DNA from: a bacterium
GTDB lineage: Bacteria; SZUA-182; DTGQ01; JAFGSM01
Length of the DNA: 20,038 bases
Assembly: GCA_049472355.1 (NCBI GenBank)
Contig: JBLIRP010000069.1
Span: forward strand, 1 to 20,038
Direction of reading: 5' to 3'
The translations under genes and the position numbers were made by a program. Under the pieces are notes generated by a model. It was not told the origin of the DNA, ran no database searches, and saw only the letters and a list, made by a program, of their open reading frames with translations. Positions 9,135 to 20,038 of this stretch are shown piece after piece; position 1 is the stretch's first letter, and each line of letters opens with the position of its first letter.

Positions 9135-10517
9135 TCAATGGCATGAGGATGTATACGATCCTTCTATGATACTACGACGCACGGTGTTTGCAATGCCCTT
9201 TGTGTCGAGATGGTCCTGCCAGGTAAAGTGCTCCCATGCACAGGGAAAGATCGAGTTGTTGTGGAACAGGGGGTCGTGCTCCAGGGCGAACCTGGAGTAG
9301 TGCACGGCCTCTTCCCAGACAGGGGTGCCGGGGATCGGAGAGAATTCCGCCAGCACCGGCACCCCTCCCAGGGCCGCCACCCTGTGGATGCTCGCCTCCA
9401 CTTCCTTGACATGCTGACCGGGGAGCCCGGTGAGTATGTACACGCCGAGGTCGGCGGCTGAAAATCCGGCCTCTGCAAAATGGTGGAGCGCCATCTCGAG
9501 CTCCTCATCCCTCACCTTTCCCCCGGTGAGGTCCTGTCGCACGGTATTTGCCGTTTCATAGCCGAGGCGGATGGTCTTGAATCCCGCCCGGAACATGAGC
9601 TGTGCGAGTTCCCTGGTAACAAAGCGGGCGTGGAGCCCGTTGGGGGTATGGAGGGAGATGCCCTCCAGCCCCCGTTCCAGGACCCCATCGAGTATGGGCA
9701 TGATGTGTTCTTCAGGATCAAACAGGAGGGCATCGTCATAAAACACGATGTTCCTGATGCCGTATTCCCTGACCCAGTGTTCAATCTCCCTTACCACCCG
9801 CTGCGGTGATTGTCTGCCGATCCCCTGGTCGAGCAGGTGAGAGGCGCAGTATGAACACCTGAAGGGGCATCCCCGGGAGGTTTGAATGCATACATACCCC
9901 CGTTCGCTCAGAAGGTCGAAGGCGGGATAGGGCAATGCATCGAGATTGTCGTTGTCCGGGAGAAGTGGCACCTCTGTGCCGGTGAGCTCGTGAAGGAGGC
10001 CCAGCACCTTTCGCTCGGCGTGGCCGGAGAGCACGTAATCCGCGCCCAAGGTGACCGCATGCAGGGGACAGAGGGTCACATACGTGCCGCCGATGATGAT
10101 CGGTGCGTCCGGGAAGACCTCGCGCACGATTTTCATGGCATCCATGACCCCGGGATACCAATAGGTCATGCCTGTGGTCATCAGGATGGCCTCAGGGGAA
10201 TGAGATATGCCCTGCAACTCCTGCATGAAGATTTCAGGCGGGATGCCGTACCGCCCGTAGCGGCGAGGCACCGATGCCAACTGAAGCGGCTTTTTGATCT
10301 GCTGTTTGAGGTACTGACCGTGCCCGAACCCTCTGTCTCCCCGCGGCCTTTTTCCCCATCGCATACGGGGGTGATAGCGATCCAGGCAATCGATGACCTG
10401 CACCCTGAAATTGCTTTCTCTCAGCAGGGCGGCGATGGAGAGAAGGCCGTACGGTTTGAGCCAGCAATCGTAGGCGGCAAAATCGTAAATCCACGGATTG
10501 ATGAGGAGTACGCACAT
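9135..10517 (-). CDS. B12-binding-domain radical SAM protein
   Basis: N-terminal cobalamin-binding-like domain (LLINPW, PYGLLSIAALL, IIIGGTYVT); TSRGCPFRCSYC (CxxxCxxC); FYDDAL; RLGYET; GLPGQ. Confidence 0.9.
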   Translation of the reverse strand: MCVLLINPWIYDFAAYDCWLKPYGLLSIAALLRESNFRVQVIDCLDRYHPRMRWGKRPRGDRGFGHGQYLKQQIKKPLQLASVPRRYGRYGIPPEIFMQELQGISHSPEAILMTTGMTYWYPGVMDAMKIVREVFPDAPIIIGGTYVTLCPLHAVTLGADYVLSGHAERKVLGLLHELTGTEVPLLPDNDNLDALPYPAFDLLSERGYVCIQTSRGCPFRCSYCASHLLDQGIGRQSPQRVVREIEHWVREYGIRNIVFYDDALLFDPEEHIMPILDGVLERGLEGISLHTPNGLHARFVTRELAQLMFRAGFKTIRLGYETANTVRQDLTGGKVRDEELEMALHHFAEAGFSAADLGVYILTGLPGQHVKEVEASIHRVAALGGVPVLAEFSPIPGTPVWEEAVHYSRFALEHDPLFHNNSIFPCAWEHFTWQDHLDTKGIANTVRRSIIEGSYTSSCH

Positions 10518-10588: not shown

Positions 10589-12280
10589 TCAAGGCGCATT
10601 CAGCACCGCCGCATAGGCATTGATCTCGCCCCATCCGAAGTACTGGTCCCACCCGATTGCACCGAGATCGATGGTGTTGGTCTCCATGATGTTTCTCACC
10701 TGGAGGGGCGTGAGGACAACCGTGGCCTTGTCGATGACAAGGGCTGCAACACCCGATGCCAGGGCACATGCAGGGGAGGTTCCTTCCATGAAATAGTAGA
10801 AGAAGGTGGAGAAGGTCGTGCCGTCGTGGGTCTGCTGCAGGATGCCGTCTGCGTAACCATCGAGGTTTTGATCCACGGTGATATTCCCCCCGGGTGCCAC
10901 CAGGTCAAGCTCGGCACCGTAATTCGAATAGCTCGGCCTGGTCCGGTCGTACTGCACCGCCCCGACGGAGACGCAGTTGGTATAGGCCGCGGGGTACTCA
11001 GGCACGCTTGAACCTGCATTGCCTGACGAACCGAACAGGATGACACCCTGGTTGAAGGCATAGACGACCGCAGCTTCTTCGGTCGCGGATACCCCGACAC
11101 CGCCGAGACTCAGGTTGATGACCTTGGCGCCGTTATTGGCGGCATAGTAGATACCGTCGGCCTCATCTGCAACCGTTACATTACCCAGACTGTCCATGAC
11201 CTTGACCGCCAATACGGTGGATGAGAAGGCCACGCCCGCCGTGCCCAGCAGGTTGTTGGTGGTTTGGGCGATACACCCGCACATGTGGGTTCCGTGACCG
11301 CTGTCGTCATCCGGCGTTGCATCGGCGTTCACGAAGTCCCATCCCGGTGTGATGAGGGTGCCGGCAAGGTCGGGGGCAAGGGCATAGGGGGCCGCATTGC
11401 GATAGGAAACCCCCGAATCGAGGAGCGCCACCACCACCCCCGTACCCCTGGCGAGGTCCCATGCCCAGTTGGTGAACATGTGGGGCAGGTGCCATTGATA
11501 CCGGTAGTAGGGATCATTGGGCACGAGGTGGGCGTGCCGGTAGTAATTGGGTTCTGCATAGAGCACCGCCGGTTCCATGGCAAGCGACTGCACCGTATCC
11601 ATGACGCTTGCTGTGGAGGGAATCGATGCGAGGGTGAACCCTGCATGGAGGCTGGTGCGGATTTCGGTGCACATGTGCCTGCTCAGGGCGAGGGCGCGGT
11701 CCTGGGGAGGGGCGCCGGGCTGAAACATGACGATCACCTGGCGGCTCACGTATCCCGGCACGAGCGGGGAATAGTTGACGCCGGCGACCTGTGTCGCTGC
11801 CCGCCCTATACGAAGCTCACCCGTATCGATGCCGGTTCCCGGGGTGGTTGCGGCCGGAGGAGGTGAAGGCACCACCTCTCTTCCGGTGCGCCATTGAGGA
11901 TCCGGTCTGTTATAGGCAAGGGTGAGGTTGAGGGTGTTGAACATGGTCGATAACGGGGTGGGACTCGCCGGTATATAGAAGGGGGCCTGTTGCCGGAAGG
12001 CGTAGGGATTGGGGTTAAACGATCCTGTCCTCCCGAAGGGGGGATAGAAGGGATACCCGGCATTCATCTGCGAAAAGCGCGGATAGGTCGAAGCGGGGAA
12101 AAAGTAACCGGGAAAACCGGAGGAGAAATTCGGCGCCGGAGACCACCAGGGTTGATAGTAGGGTGAAAAATAGGCTCCTGCTCGTTGAGCATGAAACGGT
12201 TGCATCAAGAAGAAGATGGCAAGTATGATAGCGCAGATGGTACAAAATGACACCTTTTCTCTGTTGCCCTGTGTAATCAT
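10589..12280 (-). CDS. Secreted S8 (subtilisin/thermitase-like) serine peptidase with prodomain and Tyr/Pro/Phe-rich N-terminal segment
   Basis: Triad motifs VALLDSG, DDSGHGTH, EGTS; oxyanion SSGN; prodomain ending YAEPNY; PNDPYY..QW; signal peptide ending AGA. Start at ATG 12280 (track start TTG 12301). Confidence 0.92.
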   Translation of the reverse strand: MITQGNREKVSFCTICAIILAIFFLMQPFHAQRAGAYFSPYYQPWWSPAPNFSSGFPGYFFPASTYPRFSQMNAGYPFYPPFGRTGSFNPNPYAFRQQAPFYIPASPTPLSTMFNTLNLTLAYNRPDPQWRTGREVVPSPPPAATTPGTGIDTGELRIGRAATQVAGVNYSPLVPGYVSRQVIVMFQPGAPPQDRALALSRHMCTEIRTSLHAGFTLASIPSTASVMDTVQSLAMEPAVLYAEPNYYRHAHLVPNDPYYRYQWHLPHMFTNWAWDLARGTGVVVALLDSGVSYRNAAPYALAPDLAGTLITPGWDFVNADATPDDDSGHGTHMCGCIAQTTNNLLGTAGVAFSSTVLAVKVMDSLGNVTVADEADGIYYAANNGAKVINLSLGGVGVSATEEAAVVYAFNQGVILFGSSGNAGSSVPEYPAAYTNCVSVGAVQYDRTRPSYSNYGAELDLVAPGGNITVDQNLDGYADGILQQTHDGTTFSTFFYYFMEGTSPACALASGVAALVIDKATVVLTPLQVRNIMETNTIDLGAIGWDQYFGWGEINAYAAVLNAP

Positions 12281-12667
12281 GATACGCTTCCTGCCTTCCA
12301 AGGGTTTTGTGTGAGTTAAACGATGGATTGGTACTATGAAGATACGATATATATTAAAATATTATATTACAACAAGATAAAAATAACAGGGTATAGTGTC
12401 CAATAATTTTATAGATTACACCATGATAATTATACATTAATGGATTTCAATGTCATTTGTCAAATGGAATGTGTACCTGCTTCACCATATCCGCTTCAAC
12501 CTCATTGGGGGATAATGCAATTGGCCGGGTTGGTGATGATCCCTTCATTCGAATGTGCGGAGGGACGTACTGCTGCATTTCCATCCCTTTCCTTGATTCG
12601 CCACATGCCTGTAAGGGGTTCCCTGTCTGTTCGTTGACACCATTACGATGGAGCCATGCCGCCTTCC

Positions 12668-13160: not shown

Positions 13161-14105
13161 ATGTCATCCATCATTTTCGGTCCTGTTCCATCCCGGCGCC
13201 TCGGAAGATCCCTGGGGGTTGATCTCGTCCCTTACAAGACCTGCACCTTCGACTGTGTCTATTGCGAATTAGGGCCGACCACCTGTCACATACGAACACG
13301 ACGGTCTTACACCCCGGTGGATGTTCTCTGTGACGAACTCGGAGAGCGTCTTCAGCAGCTCAAGGGGGAGGTGGACATCGTTACCCTGGCGGGATCGGGA
13401 GAGCCGACGCTCAACGCGGATCTCGGGGTCATTATTGAGAGGATCAGGGGTATGACCGATCGCCCCCTGGGAATCCTCACCAACAGCTCGCTCCTTTCCG
13501 ACAAAGCGGTGAGGGATGCATTGATGCCGCTCGATCTGGTGGTCCCCTCCCTGGACGCGTTGAGCGACGACGTCTTTCAGCATATCAATCGACCCGTTGA
13601 GGGGATCGGGATAGAGGAGATCCTCCATGGATTGATTCGATTGCGGGAGGAGTTCACCGGGAAGATCTGGCTCGAGGTGCTCGTATGTCAGGGCATCAAT
13701 GATAGTGAATCGGAGCTTGTCCGGATAAAGGAGGCAGCGGATTCGATACATCCGGACAGGATCGACATCAACACGGTATTCAGACCACCCTCGGTCGAGG
13801 GTGTCCGCGCGGTGTCCCCGGACCGTTTGGAGGAGATTGCCGCGTTCATGGGTAAGAACGCCCAGGCGGTGGGCGCCGCACGCACCAGAGAAGGGGCTGC
13901 TGGGGGTTCCCGCAGCGTGCGCACCCGCCTTGCCACCCTTCTCCGGAGGAGACCCTGCACCTCGGATGATATTGCAAGCGCCCTGTGCCTTGCACGCATT
14001 GAGGCGCTGAAACTCGTCGAACAGATGGTTTCGGAGGGTACGATCGAAAGGATCGAGCACCAAGGAACCACCTACTACAAGGCCCCTGTCCCCGACCGGA
14101 CCTGA
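13161..14105 (+). CDS. Radical SAM protein (COG0731-like, 'GPVPSRRLG' family) with C-terminal wHTH-like region
   Basis: FGPVPSRRLGRSLGVDL, CTFDCVYC (CxxxCxxC), GSGEPTL, LTNSSL, PSLDA. Confidence 0.9.
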   Translation: MSSIIFGPVPSRRLGRSLGVDLVPYKTCTFDCVYCELGPTTCHIRTRRSYTPVDVLCDELGERLQQLKGEVDIVTLAGSGEPTLNADLGVIIERIRGMTDRPLGILTNSSLLSDKAVRDALMPLDLVVPSLDALSDDVFQHINRPVEGIGIEEILHGLIRLREEFTGKIWLEVLVCQGINDSESELVRIKEAADSIHPDRIDINTVFRPPSVEGVRAVSPDRLEEIAAFMGKNAQAVGAARTREGAAGGSRSVRTRLATLLRRRPCTSDDIASALCLARIEALKLVEQMVSEGTIERIEHQGTTYYKAPVPDRT

Positions 14106-14889: not shown

Positions 14890-15040
14890 TTGCCATTCAT
14901 CTTCTGAGGAAAGAACCTTTGCCAATCAATGCCTGCAGCGGATCGGCTGTGCCGACCGTTGAGACATAACGTTCATGCCTGATTTTTTGAGCATGCGATG
15001 CACTGACAGACACTACACATGCAAAAGGGGATTCACCACC

Positions 15041-16012
15041 ATGCCTTATCGGGCAATCAAGTCGATATTCACGCTGTTTGCCGTTTTCATCCTGCTTGCC
15101 TGTTTTCATCACCAGGTGGTTGCCTGCGTGGGTGCGCGTGCATTGTCACTCGGCGGGGCCTTTACCGGGATTGCGGATGATACCGAGGCGACCTACTGGA
15201 ATCCTGCCGGGCTTGCCAAGGCGTCCTCCGGAATCTATACCATGCATAATCTGAATCATCGGCGGGAATTCAACTACGACGACTATGTTGGGATATCCTT
15301 CAAACGGGGCGGCTGGGGGGTAGGTGGACAGTATATAGGAAAATCCACCTCCAGACGGGCCTGGGTGCTCACCTCGGGGCACGGGGTCCAGTTGGGGGAA
15401 ATCGATGACGAATCAACGTGGCTCCAGGTCGGTGCGGGTCGTGCATGGTCATTTATCCTGATCGGGGCGAACCTTCGCTATGTGAAGGAAACACAGGAGA
15501 TAACGGTTGACTCGATTGTTCCTCCCCTCCATACCCGGAGTGAGGATTCCGCCTGGGCATGTGATATCGGGCTTCTCACCGAATTCGGTCCCCTGCGAAA
15601 CAAGGGACGTTCCAGGATGTTTTCCGCGGGGGTCCTCGTACAAGACCTGAACAGTCCTGAAATCCTGGGGCAGGAGTACATCGTCAATGTGCGGCCCGGA
15701 GCCGGGTTCAGGCCCTCTGATGGTTTTCTGCTGAGCATTGAGATATACGATGCAGCCTGTCAATACTTCGACCAACCGCAGGTTCGCATCGGGGCCGAAT
15801 GGATCGTCTCCCCTCCCGCCTCCGTTGGGGAGTTTGTACTCCGGGGTGGGGTGTATCACATGAACGAGCCCGGTTATCGAGCGGTTACCGGAGGGTTGGG
15901 GTACCTGCGGCCGTTTTCCGGCAATTTCTCCCTGGGGATGGATTACGCCTTCATGAGCTGGGAGGAGGCGAACAAGGTCACCCATCTTTTATCACTCGTA
16001 TGCAAGTTTTAA
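15041..16012 (+). CDS. Outer-membrane beta-barrel, PorV/PorQ-OmpP1/FadL-like (UPF0164-like)
   Basis: Signal peptide; VGARALSLGGAFTGIADD..ATYWNPAGLA; amphipathic strands; C-terminal Phe (HLLSLVCKF). Start at ATG 15041. Confidence 0.82.
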   Translation: MPYRAIKSIFTLFAVFILLACFHHQVVACVGARALSLGGAFTGIADDTEATYWNPAGLAKASSGIYTMHNLNHRREFNYDDYVGISFKRGGWGVGGQYIGKSTSRRAWVLTSGHGVQLGEIDDESTWLQVGAGRAWSFILIGANLRYVKETQEITVDSIVPPLHTRSEDSAWACDIGLLTEFGPLRNKGRSRMFSAGVLVQDLNSPEILGQEYIVNVRPGAGFRPSDGFLLSIEIYDAACQYFDQPQVRIGAEWIVSPPASVGEFVLRGGVYHMNEPGYRAVTGGLGYLRPFSGNFSLGMDYAFMSWEEANKVTHLLSLVCKF

Positions 16013-16431
16013 AGGGCGATTAACGGATTTGGACAAATCAGCGGTGTGTCCCTCTTGAAGGAACTCGCTTGATTTTTTCTCACCTTTCCCGCCATTTCGG
16101 TCGGACCCGGAACAGATGCGCCATGCAATCTTCACCGGGCTCTGTGGCTGCCGAGACCTGTGAGACTCCGGATAGAAATACCAATATACGGCATGGATTA
16201 GGGGACAGTAATGCCGATTTTGACCCTGCACCATCGTGCGCAGACATGTTGACACTTCCGGCCTGAAGATTCACAATCGGCATTGCCGGAGCGGGGAAGG
16301 GGGATTTGAATTCTGTCAATCCTTCAGTATATAATAATATTACTGCTATGTGGATGTTCTCATGTGATGCATCGAGAAGGAGGTATGTACAGAAGGGCAA
16401 TGGTAGTGCGTGAGCACAGGCGATTTCTCCT

Positions 16432-16866
16432 ATGATCAAGAAGGGGTTCATGCTGGTTTTAGCCTCGCTTACGGTGTTCGCGATCGTTGCTGGTCATGCG
16501 GCGGCTCTGGCGGATTGTGTGGTTGATCCCCGTTTGGATTTCATTGTCATCAATTACACGGAAGACCACGGCTCAGACAAGTTTGCACCGGTTCCATTTA
16601 CCCACAAGAGGCACTATGTGGATTACGAGGTTCCCTGCCGTGCCTGTCACCATGCATGGAAGGTGGATATCAGGGATAATCCCCTCAAATGCAGGGAGTG
16701 CCATAAGGGTAAGGAAGTGAGCGGTGTAATTTTCTTACGGAACGCCTTTCATCGTTCCTGCCTCGTTTGCCACCGTGAGGTGCGCAATCGCAATAAGCCG
16801 ACCGGCCCAATAGGATGCAAAGACTGCCATGTTGTTCCGGATAGGGACTCACGGCGTTCACCGTGA
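16432..16866 (+). CDS. Tetraheme cytochrome c3 (class III) family protein
   Basis: Signal peptide; PVPFTHKRH; four CxxCH motifs (CRACH-H, CRECH, CLVCH, CKDCH); AFH distal ligand. Confidence 0.92.
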   Translation: MIKKGFMLVLASLTVFAIVAGHAAALADCVVDPRLDFIVINYTEDHGSDKFAPVPFTHKRHYVDYEVPCRACHHAWKVDIRDNPLKCRECHKGKEVSGVIFLRNAFHRSCLVCHREVRNRNKPTGPIGCKDCHVVPDRDSRRSP

Positions 16867-17276: not shown

Positions 17277-17945
17277 ATGGTACGTCTTAGGTTGAGAACA
17301 GCTTTGATTTTGCTCGTTTCCCTTTGTCTTATCGGTGCGTTCCTCACCACGCAGTGCCTGCGCGCTGAGGAGGATGAACCGAATAGAACGGCTCAATGGT
17401 ATCAAGCACAATATGGCAGCACACCATGGGGCGGAACCTGGAGCATGGGGCAATTCGGACCGGATGTCGGATACGGAGAACAAGGCGTCCGCTACCAGTA
17501 CACTGATCCCATGAGCGGGGCCTTTGTCAGTTATTCCACCACCGGAATGGGAATGGGTGCAGGCGGTCCGTTGATGGGATATGGCGGGATGTACAGTGGC
17601 CTTGCCGGTGCATCGTACGGACCGTATGCATATGGCGGCAACGCAAACCCTAATCCGACACCCGGGTGGGCTACCCAGGGTTCTATGTCGGGAAGCCTCT
17701 TTGGTCCCCAATCCAGTTACTATCAAGCACAGCCGGGTCTGACGTGGCTGCTTGGCGGCGGCTTCGGCGGCTACGGCGGCTACGGTGGGATAGGCGGCGG
17801 TTACGGTGGCTACGGCGGCTACGGCGGTTACGGCGGCTATGGTGGGCTTGGCGGCGGTTACGGCGGCTACGGCGGCTATGGTGGGCTTGGCGGCGGCTAC
17901 GGCGGTTTTGGTGGCCTTGGTGGTTTTGGCGGCGGCTGGTGGTAA
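17277..17945 (+). CDS. Secreted Gly/Tyr-rich low-complexity protein with C-terminal (GGY/GGL/GGF)n repeats
   Basis: GGAGG SD; signal peptide ending LRA; synonymous third-position variation in the Gly/Tyr codons supports this frame; followed by an intrinsic terminator. Confidence 0.85.
   Translation: MVRLRLRTALILLVSLCLIGAFLTTQCLRAEEDEPNRTAQWYQAQYGSTPWGGTWSMGQFGPDVGYGEQGVRYQYTDPMSGAFVSYSTTGMGMGAGGPLMGYGGMYSGLAGASYGPYAYGGNANPNPTPGWATQGSMSGSLFGPQSSYYQAQPGLTWLLGGGFGGYGGYGGIGGGYGGYGGYGGYGGYGGLGGGYGGYGGYGGLGGGYGGFGGLGGFGGGWW
17754..17936 (+). repeat. Coding tandem repeat: 9-nt GGCGGCTAC-type units with a 39-nt higher-order period
   Basis: ggcggctatggtgggcttggcggcgg occurs at 17832 and 17871 (13-aa unit GGYGGLGGGYGGY). 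Confidence 0.85.
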
Positions 17946-19221: not shown

Positions 19222-19249
19222 TTGACATGCCGATTTTTTGAGGTATAAC
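19222..19249 (+). promoter_or_regulatory. Putative sigma70 promoter for the peptide operon
   Basis: TTGACA (19222-19227)-N16-TATAAC (19244-19249). Confidence 0.5.
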
Positions 19250-19319
19250 TATATACAAGAGGGTTTTATAGCAGCCCATTCAATCTGCTCGCCTTGCGCG
19301 AAGAAAGGAGGATGCAAGG

Positions 19320-19382
19320 ATGACGATCAGAAAGGTGACAAAAAGGTCCAGGGGACTGTGTAAGTGCAAGAATTCCTGCTGA
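19320..19382 (+). CDS. 20-aa Cys-rich peptide MTIRKVTKRSRGLCKCKNSC, candidate RiPP precursor
   Basis: Below the ORF-track cutoff. AAAGGAGG SD (19304-19311) 8 nt before ATG 19320; promoter upstream; hairpin downstream; RRE-like gene two genes downstream. Confidence 0.7.
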   Translation: MTIRKVTKRSRGLCKCKNSC

Positions 19383-19400
19383 CGTTGTTTGTGTCGATTC

Positions 19401-19440
19401 AGGGGTCGGCGGTGTGAGCTGTCGGCCCTTTTTGCTTTTT
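19401..19440 (+). terminator. Hairpin with U-rich tail after the peptide gene (partial terminator/stabiliser; SECIS not excluded)
   Basis: 13-bp stem 19401-19413/19418-19430 with 5 G-U pairs, GUGA (GNRA) tetraloop, followed by tttgcttttt. Confidence 0.6.
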
Positions 19441-19453
19441 GGGAGAACGAGGC

Positions 19454-19816
19454 TTGGGAAAAGAGGGATTCAAGCGATATATCTGCCGTCCGTTCTGCAC
19501 GTTTTTTCGTGAGGGCGCAAAGGAGGATATGGCGTGTCGCGGGGCCCGGGTGGTCGAATCCTTGCTGCAGGCAGGGGTGTTCCGCGTCGATCATATCCCC
19601 ATAAACGGGAAGTCTCCCCATTTATGGGCACATCGCGACGAGGTCCTGGAACGGACGGTGTGCCGATCCTGTCCCTTTCGTGCAGAGGATTGCGATTTCC
19701 AATCCACGCATCCACCCCCCGGAACAGAACCGTGCGGTGGCTATATCCTACTGAGCCTTCTCAAGGAGAAGGGAATCATCACCACTGCGGATCTCGAGGA
19801 TTCGGGCGATGGATGA
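19454..19816 (+). CDS. Small 7-Cys hypothetical protein (possible metal/Fe-S binding)
   Basis: CRPFC, MAC, CRSCPFRAEDC, PCGG. Start at TTG 19454 (GGAG 8 nt upstream; track start 19439); overlaps the next ATG by 8 nt. Confidence 0.8.
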   Translation: MGKEGFKRYICRPFCTFFREGAKEDMACRGARVVESLLQAGVFRVDHIPINGKSPHLWAHRDEVLERTVCRSCPFRAEDCDFQSTHPPPGTEPCGGYILLSLLKEKGIITTADLEDSGDG

Positions 19817-20038
19817 TAACAGGCGTTTTTTACGACTGCATCCCCGGGCTGCGCTGAAACGGCTGGAGCGTCCCTTTGTCTATCACCTCGACCGGGACGA
19901 GCTCTATGAGATCGATGCTGCTGCGGAGTCATTTCTGGTTTCCTGTGACGGTACACTGGCCAGGGAAAAAACGGCCGCCGAGGAGGAATTCGTGGCATAT
20001 TGCCTCGAGGAGGGACTCCTGGAGGTCCTTTCGCAACC
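19809..20038 (+). CDS. Partial CDS: N-terminal RRE/PqqD-like domain, probably of a radical SAM(/SPASM) peptide maturase
   Basis: Not in the ORF track. ATG 19809 with GAGGA SD; open to the window end: MDDNRRFLRLHPRAALKRLERPFVYHLDRDELYEIDAAAESFLVSCDGTLAREKTAAEEEFVAYCLEEGLLEVLSQ. The three-strand-then-helix pattern with CDGT and EEGLL resembles PqqD/RRE. No radical SAM motif lies inside the window. Confidence 0.7.
   Translation, partial: MDDNRRFLRLHPRAALKRLERPFVYHLDRDELYEIDAAAESFLVSCDGTLAREKTAAEEEFVAYCLEEGLLEVLSQ

Follow-up and report, generated by a model that had tools for sequence, protein, structure and literature searches.

Whether the right end of this contig encodes a peptide-modification system, and if so of what kind, is the question raised by a small cassette of genes found there. 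The window, by which we mean the whole stretch of DNA that was analysed (20,038 nucleotides), is the entire contig C115, and the cassette lies at its right end on the + strand. The initial annotation had described a promoter, a Shine-Dalgarno sequence (SD), a small ORF, a hairpin with a U-tail and two overlapping genes, and had proposed that together they form a peptide-modification operon. All of these elements are present, as follows.

19222..19249, + strand: promoter-like site TTGACA-16-TATAAC, sigma-70-type, read from the sequence
19304..19312, + strand: Shine-Dalgarno of the peptide gene, AAAGGAGGA, read from the sequence
19320..19382, + strand: gene for a putative 20-aa precursor peptide, MTIRKVTKRSRGLCKCKNSC, with ATG at 19320 and a TGA ending at 19382; based on homologues and codon pattern
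19401..19440, + strand: GC-rich hairpin (stem 19401-19430) and U-tract; a terminator, an attenuator or an RNA-stabilising stem
19454..19816, + strand: partner protein (120 aa, 7 conserved Cys) made up of tandemly repeated helical units of ~50 aa with 3 Cys each
19809..20038, + strand: first 76 codons (RRE-like) of a radical SAM/SPASM enzyme of ~390 aa; the contig end cuts the ORF

The end of the partner gene (19816) and the ATG of the enzyme gene (19809) overlap by 8 nt. Because the window is the whole of C115, the final ORF is truncated after 76 codons. As encoded in the window, none of the three cassette products matched Pfam or NCBIfam. The proposal of a peptide-modification operon is nevertheless supported by our results, which identified a radical SAM/SPASM enzyme with an RRE-like domain and a conserved peptide gene.

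The 20-codon ORF

The ORF encodes 20 residues and ends with C-K-C-x3-C at the extreme C-terminus, with the core C14-K15-C16-K17-x-S19-C20. Across 102 loci, 71 distinct 20-residue homologues were collected. The homologue search demanded a terminal CxCxxxC, so the three Cys are conserved by selection of the set, and the pooled set of 71 was filtered on this motif, position 3 and charge. Within this filtered set, the length of 20, Ile3, Lys/Arg5 and Lys15 were invariant in 71/71 distinct peptides. In a set selected on CxCxxxC alone, the length of 20, Ile3, Lys/Arg5, Lys/Arg8 and Lys15 were nearly or fully invariant. The residues flanking the core Cys were variable among the 71 peptides, Lys15 excepted. 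The net charge of the peptide was +7.1, and it was at least +5 in all 71 forms.

Over 58 distinct coding sequences, pN/pS was 0.22/0.85, and it was 0.26/0.83 when Cys codons were left out. In the window's genome, CxCxxxC ends only 5 of 126,524 stop-to-stop frames, and the peptide frame is the only one with a Met 10-17 residues before the motif. One could suppose that the small ORF is a chance frame within a conserved leader RNA, given that no annotation or family model names it. This reading has virtually no chance of being correct and is already refuted by the codon pattern: entropy was highest at third codon positions (1.30 compared to 0.58 and 0.56), and the invariant residues are encoded by all their synonymous codons. 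The peptide gene also relocates as a unit, and a search of Rfam gave nothing at E 1. Judged from these sequences, the 20-codon ORF is a real gene under purifying selection, and what the initial annotation had picked out as a small ORF with a basic, leader-like half and a C-terminal CxCxxxC has 71 distinct homologues. That annotation had also found no likeness to precursors it recognised, which agrees with our search of NCBIfam, where no precursor family model or any other model matched the peptide.

The stop codon after the last Cys is TGA in 31 cases, TAA in 24 and TAG in 15. Selenocysteine read-through was ruled out by these mixed stops and by the lack of an in-frame Sec codon in the homologues.

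Some loci carry more than one peptide gene. Two different peptide genes stand in tandem in L052 and L053, upstream of the partner, and in G241:C80:20620-20842. Extra or sole peptide genes were seen on contigs apart from the enzyme gene in G009:C13, G012:C50, G021:C4, G145:C131, L129 and L131.

The radical SAM/SPASM enzyme

A genome scan with the partner protein returned 10 loci (Desulfobacterales, Syntrophales, a deltaproteobacterium and an unclassified bacterium), and in 10/10 the gene after the partner encodes a radical SAM protein of 383-398 aa. In the closest locus, L001, the enzyme has 391 aa, and over its first 76 residues it shares 99% identity with the window ORF. Residues 146-391 were located at the end of another contig of the window's own genome, C40, with 94% identity to L001, and residues 77-145, including the CxxxCxxC, are missing from the assembly between C115 and C40.

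As the initial annotation had anticipated, the ORF from 19809 continues into a CxxxCxxC radical SAM domain and then a seven-Cys SPASM-type tail. In an alignment of 72 distinct full-length enzymes (75 before duplicate removal), which are 41-75% identical to L001, the CxxxCxxC (C103, C107 and C110) was invariant in 72/72. The same was true of the tail residues C300, C316, C348, C351, C357, C361 and C376, all of which are encoded on C40. His292, just ahead of the tail, was also invariant in the full-length enzymes, and C334 was present in only 60/72. The L001 enzyme scored 78 bits with PF04055 against a cut-off of 29.5, which places it in the radical SAM superfamily. SPASM proteins are described as carrying two additional clusters, for which seven or eight Cys are conserved at the C-terminus (PMC9477430, excerpt). 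The number here is seven, and the JGI names retrieved agree with this subgroup (radical SAM/SPASM protein, nothing more specific). The Pfam SPASM model (PF13186) did not match the enzyme.

In NCBIfam, every cut-off shown was missed, and the best score of any model for the enzyme was 84-94 bits. L001 scored 84/400 with ScmE, 71/400 with ScmF, 68/265 with MftC and 61/381 with PqqE; AhbC, AhbD and NirJ were also among the top models. The sactisynthase models StsB (68-75/625) and AlbA (54/850) and the SbtM model TIGR04082 (53-62/350 bits) were missed as well. Since the best score was 84/400, no named family covers the enzyme. The clade gives no pointer to thioethers because the top scores are about equal and include decarboxylases. 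SkfB was the best Foldseek match (393 columns, 20% identity) and the best by HMM. This match says little about chemistry, since the enzyme model is poor (pLDDT 56, tail <40) and VIA-align ranked viperins above SkfB on the barrel.

The RRE-like N-terminal domain

The RRE-like sequence pattern that the initial annotation had quoted from the start of the 19809 ORF is present, and its assignment of an RRE is likely rather than proven: several signals converge, but each is weak and no HMM or PDB match was significant. With the window's 76 residues, the nearest ESM Atlas clusters were PqqD-family proteins and MftB chaperones (0.91-0.92), and 25/30 matches fell in the MftB set. Pfam PqqD was the commonest weak match among 65 aligned N-terminal domains (5/65, best E 0.039), and the NCBIfam search matched PqqD in 1 member of the set. 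The VIA-align rows did not span residues 1-85. An RRE has a three-stranded sheet and three helices; the model has strands within residues 7-34 and helices at 37-45 and 52-67, the only two that are clear.

The domain is acidic, with a mean net charge of -6.6 and a negative charge in 64/65 members. On the predicted third strand, D30, E31 and E34 are acidic in 64-65/65. In CteB, the leader extends the RRE sheet at the third strand (PMC6231123, excerpt). The domain also keeps Cys of its own, C46 in 69/72 and C65 in 71/72 enzymes, which correspond to 19944-19946 and 20001-20003 of the window.

The Cys-repeat partner protein

The partner gene starts with the TTG at 19454, behind GGAG, giving a length of 120 aa compared to 120-121 aa for its homologues. 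Alternative starts at 19439 and 19529 were rejected because L001 has an ATG at the position of 19454 and because of the homologue lengths; one RNA contig reads A at 19454. Seven Cys (C11, C15, C28, C70, C73, C80 and C94) are conserved in 129-130 of 130 aligned homologues. The two halves of the protein are homologous to each other (HHalign probability 94%), and a short form of the partner, a 50-residue half-protein of one unit, aligns to each half at 98%. The long form is thus a tandem repeat of a ~50-aa, 3-Cys unit, and the short form probably dimerises, since the halves are homologous and the short form equals one unit. The three Cys per unit suggest metal or Fe-S sites with a free position.

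The AlphaFold model of the partner is all helical with a pLDDT of 85. The protein belongs to no Pfam or NCBIfam family, its fold had no Foldseek match at E 0.001, and an HMM search of PDB sequences was empty. The top VIA-align rows were XpsE-N (Z 5.5, rmsd 2.3, 56 aligned), MshE (Z 3.2) and PilF. The likeness to the MshEN/XpsE N-terminal four-helix bundle is weak and consists of two tandem helix-Gly-helix units. The Z score is within the range of common helical arrangements, and each partner unit has a Cys-bearing insert instead of the c-di-GMP motif RLGxxLLxxG of MshEN (PMC5013675). A role as a c-di-GMP receptor was rejected since the RLGxx(L/V/I)(L/V/I)xxG motif, present twice in such receptors, is found in 0/130 members; a single member had a weak match (E 0.092) to the NCBIfam c-di-GMP motif model.

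In total, 225 clusters at 50% identity match the partner. Partner-enzyme fusions, with the partner on the N-terminal side, occur in 4 long representatives and 2 loci, and one protein joins the partner to the cupin-like neighbour described below. In L067 and L076 the partner does not adjoin the enzyme. Complex prediction of partner and enzyme gave a score of 0.00 and a mark of 0.32, which is uninformative either way. In P0104, the partner domain stands at the C-terminal end of a receiver-PAS-histidine-kinase-like protein, which is either a real sensor fusion or a chimera.

Linkage of the peptide to the enzyme

A metagenome scan with the enzyme alignment returned at least 493 related stretches, and the best 80 of them were kept. 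The pooled set comprised 97 loci with the enzyme (98 less L018, in which the enzyme is absent), of which 77 have the long partner. In 63 of the 67 long-partner loci with at least 350 nt of upstream DNA, the peptide was found 124-322 nt upstream of the partner, and the small ORF behind an SD is kept at homologous loci. The nine short-partner loci, which form one clade in a quick tree, have no peptide upstream; it lies right behind the enzyme gene in 8/9, and the ninth locus is cut there. Position 12 of the peptides of this clade is often Thr, Ala or Ser, not Gly. Six short-partner loci (L070, L080, L091, L093, L094 and L096) have the order partner, enzyme, peptide, hairpin and ATP-grasp gene. 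L130 keeps both the ATP-grasp gene and the peptide with their order swapped. The peptide also lies right behind the enzyme gene in L076.

When loci were chosen by the enzyme N-terminal domain alone, the peptide was within 1.5 kb in 24 of 27 (30 further loci minus 2 duplicates and 1 at a contig edge). The genomes of the three remaining loci, together with G010 from the window's own genus, each contain exactly one intact peptide gene with an SD elsewhere (4/4), and two of these four genes are on other contigs with unrelated neighbours. Three metagenome loci (L024, L025 and L086) have no local peptide. The link between peptide and enzyme survives changes in gene order, since the peptide is also found behind the enzyme or elsewhere in the genome.

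Among 401 genomes of the phylum of L002, the enzyme N-terminal domain was detected in 45 and the peptide pattern in 44, all within those 45, compared to 0/356 enzyme-less genomes, although these genomes are related and the counts are not independent. A reversed-pattern control gave 0. In the sole enzyme-positive genome without the peptide, the enzyme gene is at the contig start. The peptide is tied one-to-one to this enzyme clade.

The distribution is patchy (11% of the 401-genome sample and 4/11 near-complete genomes of the window's own phylum), so the system is accessory and not universal. In this small phylum, the partner was found in 7/20 genomes and the peptide in 8/20. The partner is also on record in Nitrospirota, and close DNA relatives came from marine sediment, estuary, mangrove and soil metagenomes.

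Expression signals

The promoter-like site consists of TTGACA (19222-19227) and TATAAC (19244-19249), separated by 16 nt. It was omitted by our consensus promoter scan, which demands a T at the last -10 position. Of 58 distinct homologous peptide genes, 38 have a promoter match of at least 10/12 in front of them, compared to 2.6 expected from mononucleotide shuffles. An SD-like core precedes 69/70 peptide genes. Read by eye, a hairpin of 4-5 bp directly abuts the peptide SD at 19294-19303 of the window and in several loci, where translational control would be possible.

The hairpin behind the peptide gene (19401-19430) has 13 pairs, a U-tail and a folding energy of -21.1 kcal/mol (z -2.14), which is only moderately better than chance, as 7/200 shuffles fold as well. 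In homologous spacers, a stem of at least 10 bp was found in 62/63, and a stem with a U-tract in 46/63 compared to 10% in shuffles. Metatranscriptome contigs from 4 runs in 2 studies cover only 19320-19964 at a depth of 2.5-6.3, and three of them span the hairpin. None of these contigs lies upstream of 19318, and there was no excess over the peptide gene. They are at most a hint of transcription, because the runs were picked as holders of the sequence and DNA carry-over is possible.

Neighbouring genes

Among the 97 loci, 49 of which have at least 1.5 kb of downstream DNA, the variable neighbours, of a tailoring type, were a cupin-like gene (31), a second radical SAM/SPASM gene (19), a methyltransferase gene (10) and an ATP-grasp gene (6). 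None of the four is present in the window's genome. No exporter or peptidase was found among the 28 most widespread neighbour clusters.

Elsewhere in the window, the ORF at 17277-17945 (+) encodes 222 aa that begin like a signal peptide and finish with a long tail of Gly/Tyr (GGY) repeats, the last residues being GGWW; it had no Pfam or NCBIfam match, and a counterpart is at the same place in L001. At 14975-16866 (+), a PorV/PorQ-like outer-membrane protein (weak match) is followed by a class III cytochrome c. Also present are genes for a B12-binding radical SAM protein (9135-10517, -), a subtilase (10589-12301, -) and a second radical SAM protein, HTH-like in its C-terminal part (13161-14105, +). 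None of these last three genes recurs beside the peptide cassette in other loci.

Proposed mechanism and alternatives

From sequence comparison, we favour a three-gene radical-SAM RiPP system that introduces C-S cross-links in the C-terminal core of the peptide, with a probability of about 0.55. That the peptide is the substrate of this enzyme is very probable by itself. If it is, analogy with known enzymes makes thioether-type chemistry a somewhat better than even bet. The basic residues 2-8 of the peptide would bind as a beta-strand to the acidic third RRE strand (DELYEID), with Ile3 and Val/Ile6 as the hydrophobic anchors of the leader. Residues 9-13 would act as a variable spacer of fixed length, placing the C14-K15-C16-K17-x-S19-C20 core in the barrel. 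With seven Cys for two auxiliary clusters, one site may be left open, or filled by His292, and a peptide Cys could bind there. Radical chemistry would then create at least one carbon-sulfur cross-link, for which the invariant Lys15 is one conceivable acceptor. The partner most likely holds a metal or Fe-S cluster at its two 3-Cys sites in the service of the enzyme, perhaps as a supply of clusters or electrons or as a shield for the peptide thiols. The hairpin may allow peptide mRNA to outnumber enzyme mRNA. The product is probably intracellular, since no exporter or protease recurs nearby.

C-S cross-linking leads because the three Cys are invariant, because a tail of seven Cys is able to leave one cluster site vacant, like the open Aux I site of CteB (PMC6231123, excerpt), and because enzymes of this kind tolerate many acceptor residues (PMC9389541 and PMC11002830, excerpts). 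Asp or Glu, the acceptors of PapB and QhpD, occurs in only 1/71 peptide cores. Lys15 is a candidate acceptor, as the core has no acidic one. The same three genes could instead turn Cys into thiooxazole-type heterocycles (-4 Da each), giving a soft-metal chelator whose metal the partner would handle. The radical SAM/SPASM enzyme SbtM makes a thio(seleno)oxazole by taking four hydrogens from Cys or Sec (PMC11002830, excerpt), and conserved Cys with flanks that vary except for Lys15 would suit a chemistry of Cys and backbone that needs no side-chain acceptor. We consider this unlikely, given the SbtM family score of 53 against a cut-off of 350, the absence of in-frame Sec codons with mixed stops behind the last Cys, and the lack of a metal-transport gene among the 28 most widespread neighbour clusters.

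Two further readings give the peptide another fate. It may be a scaffold for a small C-terminal cofactor or metabolite, as in mycofactocin and PQQ, with Cys20 oxidatively decarboxylated or cross-linked and the rest degraded. Cys20 is always the last residue of a peptide of fixed length, no exporter recurs, the nearest NCBIfam models include AhbD, NirJ, MftC and PqqE, and the RRE-like domain lies closest to MftB and PqqD-type clusters. Against this reading, the 28 most widespread neighbour clusters include neither a dedicated peptidase nor a client oxidoreductase, MftC scored 68/265, and the accessory genes occur in only some loci and not in the window's genome, which leaves the scaffold an outside chance. 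The peptide might also be a small subunit, a metal or Fe-S carrier or a regulator docked on the RRE-like domain, in which case the enzyme would act on the partner, in a QhpD-like manner, or on a small molecule. A subunit would explain the one-to-one co-occurrence just as well as a substrate would, antibiotic RiPPs are not usually so extremely conserved or so close to single copy, and the RRE-like domain has the conserved C46 and C65 of its own. We regard a subunit as quite improbable nonetheless: with its own promoter, a strong SD and a hairpin downstream, the gene seems set up to make an excess of peptide, additional copies stand in tandem or on separate contigs, and L076 keeps the peptide even though the partner is not beside the enzyme there or in L067.

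A further reading can be proposed only tentatively, at well under even odds. In this view, anaerobes would have a new class of RiPP: a 20-residue polycationic peptide converted to an intracellular product, through an undescribed linkage, by a radical SAM enzyme with an obligate Fe-S- or metal-binding Cys-repeat subunit. The linkage might, for instance, join Cys sulfur to Lys or close a sulfur heterocycle at the C-terminus, and the product might serve as a cofactor, a metal buffer or a nucleic-acid-binding regulator and not as an exported antibiotic.

Comparison with known systems

Radical-SAM peptide maturases are a main source of new enzyme chemistry. Here, the substrate was assigned by an unusually clean genomic test (44/45 compared to 0/356, in related genomes), and a 20-residue substrate is cheap to synthesise, so that the reaction is directly testable. 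The enzyme family is large and unnamed, with at least 493 related metagenome stretches and the 225 partner clusters. The partner is a new Cys-repeat domain and would, if it serves the enzyme as an additional metal-binding subunit, be a new mechanistic element. Our literature search found no description of the peptide system, which subscription atlases of radical SAM RiPPs could list. It is absent from the main text and two of the three supplements of Kostenko 2022 (PMC9062424).

The sactipeptide systems SkfA/SkfB, AlbA, GggB and QmpB share with this locus an architecture of RRE (a probable one here), radical SAM and auxiliary clusters and a Cys-containing precursor. SkfB, however, combines a Twitch tail with a precursor of 55 residues (PMC6231123, excerpt), compared to the seven-Cys tail and the 20-residue precursor with all Cys at its end found here. 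The identity to SkfB is ~20%, no exporter or protease recurs, and the Cys-repeat partner is extra. The ranthipeptide systems (CteA/CteB SCIFF, PapA/PapB and NxxcA/NxxcB) also have an RRE-radical SAM-SPASM enzyme of anaerobes, the RRE being a probable one here. As in CteB, a tail of seven Cys can leave room at Aux I for the binding of a peptide Cys (PMC6231123, excerpt), and the cross-link made by NxxcB runs from a late Cys to a residue further upstream (PMC9389541, excerpt). In contrast to ranthipeptides, the peptide has three Cys in 20 residues and no conserved Asp, Glu, Asn or Thr acceptor, and no family cut-off was reached. A SCIFF precursor has six Cys in about 45 residues, and the peptide, with its length, its three Cys and no NCBIfam match, is not of this type.

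The excerpted descriptions of SbtA/SbtM present a radical SAM/SPASM enzyme acting on Cys of a short precursor to give a thio(seleno)oxazole, but the score was 53/350 and no homologue has a Sec codon. Mycofactocin (MftA/B/C) and PQQ (PqqA/D/E) resemble this locus in their short, highly conserved precursor, their RRE (a probable one here), their radical SAM/SPASM enzyme and the lack of an exporter, and in the ESM Atlas the N-terminal domain falls nearest to MftB and PqqD-type proteins. The precursor cores of mycofactocin and PQQ are Val-Tyr and Glu/Tyr. The core here is made of Cys and Lys and is not aromatic, and the scores were 68/265 and 61/381. As far as its sequences indicate, the system works like known radical-SAM RiPP systems, yet it misses the family models tested and its partner domain is of no known family. 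It is most likely a new radical-SAM RiPP family.
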